From: Escherichia coli
Lineage (GTDB): Bacteria; Pseudomonadota; Gammaproteobacteria; Enterobacterales; Enterobacteriaceae
Assembly: GCF_030384885.1 (NCBI RefSeq)
Contig: NZ_CP128613.1
Reading direction: 5' to 3' (one strand)
DNA: 64,000 nucleotides
The position numbers are program-made. Shown one piece after another: positions 55,901 to 64,000 of the stretch (its first letter is position 1; each line of letters starts with the position of its first letter).

Positions 55901-58900
55901 ACGCGCGAAGTGGCTGAAACTATCAGCAACGGCGAAGCCGGATGCTTTATGCACGGGCCAACCTTTATGGGCAATCCGCTGGCCTGCGCGGCAGCAAACG
56001 CCAGCCTGGCCATTATCGAATCTGGCGACTGGCAGCAGCAGGTAGCGACTATTGAAGCACAACTGCGCGAGCAACTGGCTCCTGCCCGTGACGCCGAAAT
56101 GGTTGCCGATGTGCGCGTGCTGGGAGCGATTGGCGTGGTCGAAACCACTCGTCCGGTGAATATGGCTGCGCTGCAAAAATTCTTTGTCGAACAGGGTGTC
56201 TGGATCCGACCTTTTGGCAAGCTGATTTACCTGATGCCACCCTATATCATTCACCCGCAACAGTTGCAGCGCCTGACCGCAGCGGTTAATTGCGCGGTGC
56301 AGGATGAAACATTTTTTTGCCAATAACGAGCAGTCAGCGTGAGGTTTTCTGGCTACACTTTCTGCAAACAAGAAAGGAGGGTTCATGAAACTCATTAGTA
56401 ATGATCTGCGCGATGGCGATAAGCTGCCGCATCGCCATGTCTTTAACGGCATGGGTTACGATGGCGATAATATTTCGCCGCATCTGGCATGGGATGATGT
56501 TCCTGCGGGAACCAAAAGTTTTGTCGTCACCTGCTACGACCCGGATGCGCCAACTGGCTCTGGCTGGTGGCACTGGGTAGTTGTTAACTTACCCGCTGAT
56601 ACCCGCGTATTACCGCAAGGGTTTGGCTCTGGTCTGGTAGCAATGCCAGACGGCGTTTTGCAGACGCGAACTGACTTTGGTAAAACCGGGTACGATGGCG
56701 CAGCGCCGCCGAAAGGCGAAACCCATCGCTACATTTTTACCGTTCACGCGCTGGATGTAGAACGTATTGATGTCGATGAAGGTGCCAGCGGCGCGATGGT
56801 CGGGTTTAACGTCCATTTCCACTCTCTGGCAAGCGCCTCGATTACTGCGATGTTTAGTTAATTGCTCAACCAGATGGCGCAATGCCATCTGGTATCACTT
56901 AAAGGTATTAAAAACAACTTTTTGTCTTTTTACCTTCCCGTTTCGCTCAAGTTAGTATAAAAAAGCTGAACGCGAAACAACAAAAGCCAATAATATCAAT
57001 GTGTTAAAATACATTTAGTCTAAAAAATAGACTGCATGATACTACAAAAAACAACATATCCAGTCACTATGAATCAACTACTTAGATGGTATTAGTGACC
57101 TGAGACAGAGCATTAGCGCAAGGTGATTTTTTGTCCTCTTGCGCTAATTTTTTGTCATCAAACATATCGCACTCCAGAGAAGCACAACACCTTGCAGTCC
57201 AGTGCAAAGCTTTGTGTACCAGAGTTTTCCTCATCAACTACCGCAAGTATCGATCGATTGAGACTTGGATGATAGACTTCATACCTTTCAGAACTCATTG
57301 ATTAAATAAATGTTAAATATATTTGCAAGGTACACCTCGATTGGTGTGCTGAACACACTTATACACTGGGTGGTTTTTGGTGTATGTATCTATGCCGCGC
57401 ATACCAATCAGGCTCTGGCAAACTTCGCAGGTTTCGTTGTGGCTGTGAGTTTTAGCTTCTTCGCGAATGCAAAATTCACATTCAAAGCATCAACTACAAC
57501 GATGCGCTACATGTTATATGTCGGGTTCATGGGAACACTCAGTGCTACTGTTGGATGGGCTGCTGATAGATGCGCACTTCCCCCGATGATAACTCTTGTC
57601 ACCTTCTCCGCCATCAGCCTGGTGTGCGGTTTCGTCTATTCAAAGTTCATTGTCTTTAGGGATGCGAAATGAAAATTTCTTTAGTCGTTCCGGTCTTTAA
57701 CGAAGAGGCCACGATACCTATTTTTTATAAAACTGTGCGCGAATTTGAAGGGCTTCAGCAGCATGAAGTCGAGATAGTCTTCATAAACGATGGCAGCAAA
57801 GACGCTACAGAATCAATTATCAACGAGCTTGCTGTTGCCGACCCGCTTGTTGTTTCGCTGTCGTTCACACGTAACTTCGGCAAAGAACCCGCCCTGTTCG
57901 CAGGTCTGGACCATGCTACCGGGGAGGCAATTATCCCGATTGACGTTGATCTGCAAGACCCTATCGAAGTTATTCCTCACTTGATAGAGAAATGGCAGGC
58001 CGGTGCAGATATGGTTCTGGCTAAACGCTCTGACCGCTCCACTGACAGCAGGCTGAAGCGTAAATCTGCTGAGTGGTTCTATAAGCTTCATAACAAAATC
58101 AGCAACCCTAAGATAGAAGAAAATGTTGGCGACTTCCGGCTCATGTCTCGCGAAGTAGTAGAAAACATTAAGCTCATGCCAGAACGAAACCTGTTTATGA
58201 AGGGTGTGCTGAGCTGGGTTGGTGGTCGAACCGATGTCGTAGAATATGCGCGAGCAGAACGAGTTGCAGGAAGCACAAAGTTCAATGGATGGAAGCTATG
58301 GAACTTGGCGCTGGAAGGGATCACTAGCTTTTCTACTTTCCCTTTGCGCATGTGGACTTATATAGGCCTGTTTGTGGCAACCTTATCATTCCTTTATGGA
58401 GCATGGATGATTGCTGATAAATTGATGTTTGGAAATAGTGTTCCAGGTTACCCTTCTATCATTGTATCAATATTGTTTCTTGGTGGAGTTCAGTTAATAG
58501 GCATAGGAGTTCTTGGAGAGTATATAGGAAGAATTTATGTTGAAGTTAAGCAGCGACCAAGATACATTCTAAAGGATAAGTAAAATGACTTTAAATATAA
58601 AAAAAACAGCCATATACATCATTGGATTTATATTCTTGACTTTCTTCTACGCCTCGATTTCAAAACAGATTTTGCCAAGTTCGGATGCTGTTTCTGGACT
58701 TCTTGAGGGTAAGGACATTGCGGACGGAAATTGGACGCTTAGTGGATGGTATCTCTCTACAGTATCATTCTATTTTACAGACATAATATGGTACGGGCTT
58801 GCTTCAAAGGTATTCTGGTACGGACAGTACCAAGCATACTGCATACCGGCAATTATGTATTCAATGGTTACATTGATGACATTTTATCTTTCAAAAGAAA

Positions 58901-61900: not shown

Positions 61901-64000
61901 GTCGTATCGCGTGATGTTGGCATCTGGTCTGCCCAGGGCAGCAAGCTGTGCAAGGTAAAAATCCTCATTGATGCCGCCCGCCAGATTAACCTTCGCATCC
62001 AGCCGTTGCTGACGCTGGCGAAGGGTCTGCGTTCCCGCCGGAATACATTCATCCGGCAGGCCGCACAGACGCTCCCAGCGGTTTATCAGTTCAGTGGTGG
62101 TGCGCGGATCCAGCTCCCGCATCAGGGCATCCGCACGCTGATGAACGCGGGTTCCAGACGCCGCGCGGTTGCAGATCGCTGCCAAGGCTAACACCGGAAA
62201 GCGTTTTGATCATGGTGACCAGGTCGCTGGCGTTACCATAAAGGCGTTTCCCGGTACGCCACATTTTCTGCACCTGCTCAACGAAATTTTTGCCTGACGA
62301 TGGCGGCGGCAGAAGTACCGAGATATCCCCCTGCAACAGCCTGGCGGCATCCGATACGGCAGAATCCACCACTTTCATCGCATCAGAAACATACCCCAGC
62401 ATTGTGCTGGCATTACCGACGACGTCGTTCTGCACAAAATCCGCCACGCCATCGATACTGAAACCTCTGAAACTGTCACTGATGCAGTCATCCAGTGCAG
62501 AACAGGATGACATCAGCGTCTGCGCCGTCGCCGCACCTGATGTGGGGTAAGAGAGTTCTCCCGCTTCGACAAACTTCAGGTCAAAGCGGACAATACGCCC
62601 TTCATTCTTCGATGTGCTGACCCGAACTTCCCCGTCAACACAGACTTTCAGCTCACCGTATGTCGGATGGACAAGCGTGCCGGGACCGGGTTTATTCAGC
62701 GCGTCAATCAGGCGATCGCGCTGGTCAAAGCAGTCATCTCCCACCACATAAGCCGTGATGGACGGGCGGAAAGTGATTTTCCCCAGGTCTTCGGTAACCT
62801 TTATATAAGAAACAATGGATATTACTGCTACAGGGACCCAAGGACGGGTAAAGAGTTCGGATTAGGCAGAGACAGGAGGATAGCAATTACTGAAGCAATA
62901 CAGGCAAACATTGAGTTATTTTCAGGACACAAACACAAGCCTCTGACAGCGAGAATCAACAGTGATAATTCTGTTACGTTACATTCATGGCTTGATCGCT
63001 ACGAAAAAATCCTCGCCAGCAGAGGAATCAAGCAGAAGACACTTATAAATTACATGAGCAAAATTAAAGCAATAAGGAGGGGGCTACCTGATGTTCCACT
63101 TGAAGACATCACCACAAAAGAAATTGCAGCAATGCTCAATGGATACATAGACGAGGGCAAGGCGGCGTCAGCAAAGTTAATCAGATCAACACTGAGCGAT
63201 GCATTCCGAGAGGCAATAGCTGAAGGCCATATAACAACAAACCCGGTCGCTGCCACTCGCGCAGCAAAATCAGAGGTAAGGAGATCAAGACTTACGGCTG
63301 ACGAATACCTGAAAATTTATCAAGCAGCAGAATCATCACCATGTTGGCTTAGACTTGCAATGGAACTGGCTGTTGTTACCGGGCAGCGAGTTGGTGATTT
63401 ATGCGAAATGAAGTGGTCTGATATCGTAGATGGATATCTTTATGTCGAGCAAAGCAAAACAGGCGTAAAAATTGCCATCCCAACAGCATTGCATGTTGAT
63501 GCTCTCGGAATATCAATGAAGGAAACACTTGATAAATGCAAAGAGATTCTTGGCGGAGAAACCATAATTGCATCTACTCGTCGCGAACCGCTTTCATCCG
63601 GCACAGTATCAAGGTATTTTATGCGCGCACGAAAAGCATCAGGTCTTTCCTTCGAAGGGGATCCGCCTACCTTTCACGAGTTGCGCAGTTTGTCTGCAAG
63701 ACTCTATGAGAAGCAGATAAGCGATAAGTTTGCTCAACATCTTCTCGGGCATAAGTCGGACACCATGGCATCACAGTATCGTGATGACAGAGGCAGGGAG
63801 TGGGACAAAATTGAAATCAAATAATGATTTTATTTTGACTGATAGTGACCTGTTCGTTGCAACAAATTGATAAGCAATGCTTTTTTATAATGCCAACTTA
63901 GTATAAAAAAGCAGGCTTCAACGGATTCATTTTTCTATTTCATAGCCCGGAGCAACCTGTGAACACATTTTCAGTTTCCCGTCTGGCGCTGGCATTGGCT

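Follow-up and report, generated by a model that had tools for sequence, protein, structure and literature searches.

Prophage element between ybhB and ybhC

We analyzed 64 kb of the Escherichia coli chromosome around bio-ybhB/ybhC (contig NZ_CP128613.1; hereafter the window, to which all coordinates refer) and focused on a 6.9-kb prophage element at attB-lambda, the attachment site that phage lambda uses between ybhB and ybhC. The 15-bp lambda core, GCTTTTTTATACTAA, was found exactly twice in the 64 kb, both times on the minus strand and with 0 mismatches (0.01 copies expected by chance), and the two copies form a directly repeated pair (repeat family D2) that flanks the element and is oriented as in a lambda-type prophage whose int lies beside ybhC (Table 1). 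In genomes with an empty site, the homology of the ybhB flank ends exactly at the end of the core (query positions 1-87, equal to window positions 56880-56966, at 100% identity). An earlier interpretation made from the sequence alone had placed a prophage remnant with both hybrid att junctions at this site, with the core directly repeated at its ends and joined to recognizable P and P' arms, and the core copies, the arms and the end of the empty-site homology bear this out.

To describe the arms, we rebuilt attP from the left P arm and the right P' arm and aligned it site by site with lambda 27460-27870, taking the Int-binding features from the lambda GenBank record. The arm-type sites P1 and P2 and the IHF site H1 are kept except for one edge mismatch, and the ~85 bp between P2 and the core (~56970-57055), which correspond to the region of the Xis sites X1, X1.5 and X2, Fis and IHF-H2, are ~70% identical to lambda. 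The P arm is 99.4-99.6% identical to that of full-length relatives described below, which carry the same diverged stretch and have a Xis identical to lambda Xis at 71/72 residues. As the arm is shared with relatives having a near-lambda Xis, the diverged stretch would be a working variant of this family and not a product of decay, and the comparison suggests that it is functional. The sequence from the right core up to and including the stop codon of int, and with it the P' arm, is unchanged from lambda; within this arm, we take P'1-P'3 to lie at ~63822-63853 next to IHF H', their exact bases being placed from knowledge of lambda attP. Similarly, we take the hairpin between the P arm and gtrA to be sib/tI, as in lambda.

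From ybhB toward ybhC, the element carries an intact gtrABC-type cassette (57310-60051, ~40% of its length), which the sequence-only reading had left unmentioned, followed by tail genes, intact or fragmentary, and a chimeric integrase gene. The phage tail genes are 89-97% identical to those of SfV, SfI, SfII, SfIV, e14-type and related E. coli phages. The tail-fibre gene at 60740-61672 is one uninterrupted open reading frame (ORF) of 310 codons; in every relative examined, the NCBI Prokaryotic Genome Annotation Pipeline (PGAP) splits it into an "stfP" pseudogene and a "glycine-rich domain-containing protein" (in strain 2021CK-01784, at 23891-24823 of the locus). The short second tail-fibre-assembly fragment is also present in full-length relatives and thus predates the decay of the element.

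Table 1. Features, deletion junctions and alignment blocks of the element (window coordinates)
Feature	Position	Strand	Remarks
Block 1	56800-62153		99.4-99.6% identical to full-length copies; ybhB flank, P arm, gtrABC, tfa, tail fibre, truncated gp48
Core (O), left junction	56952..56966	-	adjoins ybhB; minus strand reads P-O-B', attR in lambda nomenclature
P arm	56967..57221	-	87% identity to lambda 27470-27742 (274 bp)
P2 arm-type site	~57056-57075 (CAGTCACTAT at 57061-57070)	-	site-by-site alignment to lambda
IHF H1	between P2 and P1	-	alignment to lambda
P1 arm-type site	~57088-57107	-	alignment to lambda
Hairpin, presumably sib/tI	57104..57156	.	inverted repeat I2, 19-nt arms; conserved with lambda; between P arm and gtrA
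gtrA (120 aa), putative undecaprenyl phosphate (Und-P)-glucose flippase	57310..57672	+	phrog_2224 GtrA-like, E=2.7e-69; PF04138 GtrA_DPMS_TM on identical product
gtrB (304 aa), bactoprenol glucosyltransferase, glycosyltransferase family GT2	57669..58583	+	phrog_34335/841, E=3e-179; PF00535
GtrC-position gene (488 aa), putative serotype-specific glucosyltransferase	58585..60051	+	polytopic; predicted GT-C glycosyltransferase fold; GC 0.37
GC-rich terminator-like hairpin	60060..60078	.	between converging gtrC-like and tfa genes
Second tail-fibre-assembly gene, fragment	60235..60363	+	partial pseudogene at colinear position in 4 related loci (incl. 2021CK-01784)
Tail fibre assembly chaperone (134 aa), intact	60335..60739	-	phrog_188; PF02413; 100% identical to full-length prophage
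Tail fibre, glycine-rich C-terminal domain (310 aa), intact ORF	60740..61672	-	phrog_863/1396; PF21722; 99% identical to reference
Baseplate wedge gene (Mu gp48 / YmfQ), without first ~27 codons	61676..62153	-	phrog_203; tblastn residues 28-194 of 194
Block 2	62152-62796		97.8-98.3% identical to full-length copies; internal piece of gp43-like gene
Deletion 1 junction	62152..62153	.	3,750 bp lost; 2-bp microhomology TT
DNA-circularization / baseplate hub gene (Mu gp43-like), internal fragment	62154..62795	-	phrog_184; PF07157; tblastn residues 43-256 of 442
Chimeric int ORF (385 aa)	62667..63824	+	43 antisense codons, then lambda-type Int 15-356 (from 62797)
Block 3	62795-64000		99.8-99.9% identical to full-length copies; int from codon 15, P' arm, ybhC flank
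Deletion 2 junction	62795..62796	.	31,268 bp lost (CNREC_004-43 coordinates); 2-bp microhomology TA
P' arm	63825..63897	-	100% identical to lambda, right core through int stop codon
Core, right junction	63898..63912	-	adjoins ybhC; minus strand reads B-O-P', attL

Two deletions and the origin of the element

At the same site, strain CNREC_004-43 carries a prophage that measures 41,968 bp core to core, includes both int and xis and has the order ybhC-int-xis-early-lysis-terminase-head-contractile tail-baseplate-tail fibre-tfa-gtrC-like-gtrB-gtrA-ybhB. Aligned to full-length copies of this kind, the window falls into three blocks that are separated by two deletions. The first runs from codon ~27 of gp48 to codon 256 of gp43, removing the baseplate genes gp44-gp47 and clipping gp43 and gp48. 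The second runs from codon 43 of gp43 to codon 14 of int and took xis and the first 14 codons of int as well as the genes for tail, head, packaging, lysis, replication, immunity and recombination. In total, 35.0 kb are missing in comparison with the CNREC_004-43 prophage, and no insertion sequence (IS) element was found at either junction. As is typical of a cryptic prophage, the element is colinear with a complete one and is devoid of most tail genes and of those for the head, packaging, lysis, immunity and replication. The earlier statement that nothing is left between int and the tail-fibre genes thus needs a small correction, as two baseplate gene fragments remain; the rest, including xis and the early genes, is indeed absent.

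A second full-length candidate, in 2021CK-01784 (NZ_CP104371.1 1365389-1410000), is normal from ybhB through gtrABC. We rejected it as the intact reference in favor of CNREC_004-43, as its far end consists of torI followed by ompH/upaE, with no int or ybhC, and used it for comparison of the tail end only. Over the three blocks, the copies in CNREC_004-43 and 2021CK-01784 match the window at 98.1-99.8% identity. This far end implies a chromosomal rearrangement between prophages in that strain.

The sequence-only reading could be taken as that of a deleted lambda, a bacteriophage lambda prophage that lost, in one deletion, all between int and the tail-fibre genes. The identical core, the 100% identity of the P' arm and the 98% DNA identity of int (15-356) do point to lambda, but lambda matches the window only at 56948-57221 and 62795-63912, and int and attP (~1.4 kb, 98% and 87% identity) are its only lambda-like parts. 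The tail genes match those of the SfV, SfI, SfII and e14-type (Mu-like) phages, at 89-97%, and not lambda J, stf or tfa, and lambda has no gtr cassette. The deletion endpoints, which were expected to come from an alignment to lambda, were mapped with the full-length prophages instead; these are of the type of 042p1 from enteroaggregative E. coli (EAEC) 042, are colinear with the element at the same locus, and resolve two deletions (3,750 bp and ~31.3 kb) where a single one had been assumed. The colinear mapping already refutes descent from lambda, to which we assign a negligible probability.

We conclude that the element at attB-lambda is very probably a cryptic remnant left by a mosaic lambdoid phage of ~42 kb and of the 042p1/SfV type, cut by two deletions but retaining gtr. 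The parent phage would have combined a contractile-tail module like those of SfV, SfI and e14 with lambda-type early genes and the lambda int-xis-attP module, and would have carried the gtrABC glucosylation cassette between attP and the tail-fibre genes. Once Int-mediated recombination of its attP with attB had inserted the phage between ybhB and ybhC, two illegitimate deletions at 2-bp microhomologies would have removed 3.75 kb of baseplate genes and ~31 kb from the gp43-like gene to int codon 14, and the remnant, unable to promote attL x attR recombination, would have been passed on vertically.

Chimeric integrase and mobility of the remnant

Homology to lambda in the integrase gene begins at lambda nucleotide 28841, the third base of codon 14. 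From there, the ORF encodes lambda Int residues 15-356 with three substitutions, A114V, H164P and I248V (98% DNA identity), and a residue-by-residue alignment to PDB 5j0n shows the catalytic R212, K235, H308, R311, H333 and Y342 all to be present. The preceding 43 codons are the antisense of the DNA-circularization (Mu gp43-like baseplate/tail) gene and are unrelated to the 14 Int residues that they replace. The arm-binding N-terminal domain (1-64) is thus incomplete: its basic N-terminal tail, MGRRRSHERRDLPP, is gone, while most of the arm-binding fold (15-64) and the core-binding domain are retained. The native int promoters, located in and upstream of xis, were removed by the deletion. In a consensus scan for promoters and terminators, the overall counts of which were no higher than in shuffled sequences, the only promoter-like match upstream of the chimeric ORF was a weak one (9/12, 62566-62594), and reading the sequence directly, we saw no evident Shine-Dalgarno motif ahead of the ATG at 62667. 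Searches by tblastn with lambda Xis and the relative's Xis gave no match at E<=1e-3 in the whole 64-kb window. An integrase close to lambda Int from about codon 15, its in-frame fusion to antisense tail-gene sequence and the lack of xis had all been recognized from the sequence and were confirmed. In public annotation, the 385-aa chimera (WJS54290.1, MEC4109754.1 and others) is listed as "tyrosine-type recombinase/integrase" with no pseudogene flag.

In lambda, Int's N-terminal domain (residues 1-64) binds the arm sites and acts as a regulator, the C-terminal domain alone being unable to recombine (PMC9791396), and the flexible N-terminal tail touches the minor groove of the arm DNA (PMC2831311). 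Excision needs Xis, IHF and Int bridges at P2, P'1 and P'2 (PMC4880445). Given the lack of xis, the loss of the int promoters and the replaced basic tail, self-excision by the element appears very unlikely. For that to occur, the chimeric Int would need to be expressed and to be active enough alone or with a host factor. Its 385 codons are open, and they retain residues 15-64, the core-binding domain and every catalytic residue; on the other hand, excision requires Xis (PMC4880445), of which the window has none, the native promoters are gone with just the weak match in their place and no evident Shine-Dalgarno motif, and the basic tail contacting arm DNA is missing (PMC2831311). We consider autonomous excision by an active chimera highly improbable.

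The view that the element is fixed in place, put forward from the sequence, would hold only in cis, with xis absent and Int incomplete, but less so in trans, where both att sites look intact. As attL and attR hold all Int arm-type sites, a lambda-type helper supplying Int and Xis might still excise the element. The remnant could then be a helper-dependent mobile cassette that a superinfecting phage with Int and Xis of lambda specificity excises or recombines with at attL/attR, with loss or rearrangement as possible outcomes, a scenario that agrees with the origin from a 042p1/SfV-type phage. Both hybrid att sites look complete, with a P' arm fully identical to lambda and P1, H1 and P2 conserved, and the near-lambda Xis of the full-length relative suggests that a lambda-type Xis works on the diverged P arm. 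Suitable helpers may be numerous, the int/att module being common to many lambdoid phages (HK106, HK629, HK630, O276, imm434 and imm21 hybrids). Even so, the Xis/Fis/H2 stretch is only ~70% identical to lambda, and with no cos or packaging genes left, an excised 6.9-kb circle would be neither replicable nor packageable. We regard helper-dependent mobility as possible but rather doubtful and infer that the remnant is immobile.

The gtrABC cassette

The three genes of the cassette are tightly packed, the ATG of gtrB overlapping the gtrA stop codon and the third gene starting 1 nt past the gtrB stop, and each of the three proteins is 100% identical to its counterpart in the full-length prophage. 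In full-length relatives too, gtrABC separates attP from the tail genes, an arrangement stated to be general for the gtr cassettes of temperate phages (PMC3636060). The identification of GtrA and GtrB is unambiguous, and PGAP names the gtrA and gtrB homologues of the relatives yfdG and yfdH.

The product of the third gene has no match in Pfam, NCBIfam or PADLOC, nor did tblastn against 50,697 phage records find one. It contains multiple hydrophobic segments and gave an AlphaFold model with a predicted local distance difference test score (pLDDT) of 85 and a predicted template modeling score (pTM) of 0.86. The best PDB matches of the modeled fold are the GT-C enzymes STT3/PglB, DPY19, AftB and ArnT (probability 1.0, template modeling (TM) score ~0.5), all of which are glycosyltransferases using lipid-linked sugars. 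Over its full length, the protein is 32% identical to the third gtr gene product of E. coli 042. Based on its position, hydrophobic segments, fold model and the 042 paralogue, we consider the gene a putative gtrC. Ser33, Asp34 and Asp44, located in the first predicted loop, are invariant or near-invariant in the family, and on the basis of this conservation, they are candidates for the catalytic acidic residues of the GT-C fold.

The third-gene allele is rare and was found in 24 of 5,426 complete E. coli genomes. Homologues of its product occur in Salmonella (89% identity in serovar Carrau, which we take to be O:6,14), Citrobacter, Serratia and Enterobacter and are all annotated as "hypothetical." In E. 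coli ESC818, the same gtrABC allele lies in a P22-like podovirus prophage (with tailspike and ejection proteins) at attB-lambda, and in G4/9, whose locus has no lambda core, it is directly downstream of a different integrase; the third gene in these strains is 99.6-99.7% identical to the window allele. The occurrence of the same allele on a P22-like backbone and beside another integrase indicates that the cassette has been exchanged between phage backbones and int/att modules.

By the Shigella model of gtr action (summarised in PMC7685785), GtrB would make Und-P-glucose by loading glucose onto undecaprenyl phosphate, GtrA would flip it to the periplasm and the GT-C-fold third protein would transfer the glucose to a specific sugar of the O unit. 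The resulting change of the O antigen would alter the serotype and recognition by phages and predators. As the Gtr proteins are identical to those of the full-length prophage, O-antigen glucosylation is the likely surviving function of the remnant, provided that the genes are expressed and their products active. Dam/OxyR-type phase variation of gtr is known in Salmonella; we considered it for this cassette and found it unlikely, given the single GATC upstream of gtrA.

Recurrence and related decay variants

The exact 385-aa chimera is present on 6 NCBI contigs, four of 0.2-1 Mb and one of 4.74 Mb. Two of these loci were read; compared with the window, one has 5 mismatches in 11.3 kb and the other 2 in 3.0 kb. 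Such differences of a few single-nucleotide polymorphisms (SNPs) in the flanks fit vertical inheritance. The recurrence also bears on the quality of the assembly. Prophage regions are often misassembled in short-read drafts, and a full prophage might have been collapsed across repeats, creating false junctions. An identical junction-spanning protein on several contigs, one of them 4.74 Mb long, the two loci read, which reproduce the junctions with few independent SNPs, and junctions that share just 2 bp and offer no repeat to cause a collapse make such an artefact very improbable.

Among 5,426 complete RefSeq E. coli genomes, none has the stretch spanning both deletion junctions, the best match being a different decayed prophage located elsewhere in its genome (NZ_CM142663.1). 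There, at 51978-53267, an SfV/e14-type prophage at an unrelated position has a different deletion that joins the ymfQ and DNA-circularization genes. The interval from ymfQ to the DNA-circularization gene seems to be deletion-prone. The junction of the P arm with gtrA is carried by 97 of the complete genomes.

A comparison with other strains at the locus, proposed earlier as a check, revealed full-length prophages, independent decay variants and empty sites. In EcPF15, the prophage at this site has kept int, xis and gtrABC and has lost the interval from the tail-fibre gene to a PAPS (3'-phosphoadenosine 5'-phosphosulfate)-reductase-like early gene, and in 2013C-4282, gtrABC and baseplate genes are kept and an IS3 element abuts int at codon ~36. 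These two are independent decay variants. The presence of gtrABC in all three remnants, including that of the window, is suggestive of retention by selection.

Some observations weigh against the overall interpretation or parts of it. The direct parent is absent from the collections searched, the closest full-length copies differing by 0.4-1.9% in each block. What the loss of Int residues 1-14 means for arm binding is deduced from structural descriptions, and the consensus scan gave no plus-strand promoter upstream of gtrA (56966-57310). The retention of gtrABC could be a position effect beside the att end and not the result of selection. Finally, the remnant is nearly identical to intact relatives and is therefore young, so the integrity of its genes says little about purifying selection.

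Comparison with known systems

The closest described system is 042p1 (ROD15) of EAEC 042, which has an SfV-like structural half, a lambda-like early half, a terminal gtrAB with a third gene and a 15-bp direct repeat (PMC2808357). The element shares with it the integration site and the repeat, the SfV-like tail, baseplate and tail-fibre genes, the gene order ending in gtrC-gtrB-gtrA beside ybhB and an identical GtrA protein (WP_000931964.1). Whereas 042p1 has its full length of 40.8 kb, 6.9 kb are left in the window. In its account of O44, PMC10304059, citing Wang et al. 2007, attributes the side-branch glucosylation to three prophage genes located between ybhB and ybhC, namely gtrA, gtrB and a third one, and the O44 glucose side branch is likewise assigned to a gtr prophage between these genes in PMC7685785. 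The third gtr gene differs from those of 042p1 and the O44 "wbbG" locus; with only 32% identity to that of 042, the sugar acceptor or the linkage is probably different.

The Int/Xis/att system resembles that of lambda in the identical core and P' arm, the conserved P1, H1 and P2, Int residues 15-356 and the use of the canonical bio-gal site. It differs in having no Xis, an Int without residues 1-14 and promoters, and a diverged Xis/Fis/H2 stretch, and the remainder of the element is not lambda-like. The Sf phages of Shigella flexneri have gtrABC directly beside attP and int-xis and integrate at the tRNA-thrW site with a P22-type integrase (PMC3636060). As in SfV, SfI, SfII and cryptic gtr remnants of that species, the cassette of the element is located by attP together with myovirus tail genes (89-97% identity), and as in the Sf phages, SfV/e14-like parts are combined with lambda-like ones in a mosaic genome; unlike them, the element has the lambda int/att module and a GtrC unrelated at the DNA level.

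The defective K-12 prophages CPS-53/KplE1 (argW; intS, yfdG/H/I equivalent to gtrA/B/C-like genes, tfaS) and e14 are decayed lambdoid or SfV-like prophages that keep a gtr-type cassette and/or tail-fibre genes near an att end. KplE1, with a functional integrase and TorI as its excisionase, is still able to excise, whereas our remnant has neither a complete Int nor a recombination directionality factor. The element is the decayed descendant of a known kind of prophage, the gtr-carrying lambdoid type at attB-lambda represented by 042p1, and its two-deletion architecture appears undescribed but unsurprising.

Implications

Prophage decay by deletion with a useful "moron" kept is textbook knowledge, and the case carries small weight for basic biology. 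The locus probably alters the O antigen of the lineage, judging from its gene content, which bears on serotyping and on susceptibility to phages and predators, and it involves a GtrC-like family without curated annotation. Being annotated as a plain integrase, the chimera could mislead mobile-element callers that rely on integrases. The three independently decayed versions and the full-length copies at one site form a natural series for studying prophage erosion with cargo kept.

Going further, one may speculate that selection has kept the remnant as a domesticated serotype locus, in which the rare GtrC-like allele may specify one of the as yet unassigned glucose side branches of the O77-group antigens (O17/O73/O106) or a new variant, and that its hybrid att sites may leave the cassette excisable by helpers while denying lambda-family phages a normal attB. 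We think this combined scenario unlikely.

Other features of the window

Outside the element, the window contains two islands of low GC content (0.30-0.39), each consisting of one divergent gene pair. The first (22466-26452) lies between dinG and rhlE and encodes proteins of 670 and 561 aa; the second (44155-48588), between yvcK and uvrB, encodes proteins of 765 and 550 aa. In 2021CK-01784, the gap between yvcK and uvrB is 146 bp, with no room for the island. The larger proteins of the two islands are distantly paralogous, with 22% identity over 382 aa (E=5e-24), and both match, below cutoff, the NCBIfam model of SopA-like HECT-type E3 ubiquitin ligase type III effectors; the 765-aa protein also has pentapeptide repeats (PipB2/Qnr-like). 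Family searches gave no match for their 561- and 550-aa partners. The island proteins may resemble the EspX/NleL effector family. Rfam additionally identified two expected chromosomal features, a molybdenum cofactor (Moco) riboswitch upstream of moaA (42661-42805, minus strand) and a copy of naRNA4, a nucleoid-associated RNA derived from repetitive extragenic palindromic (REP) sequence (17595-17665, plus strand).

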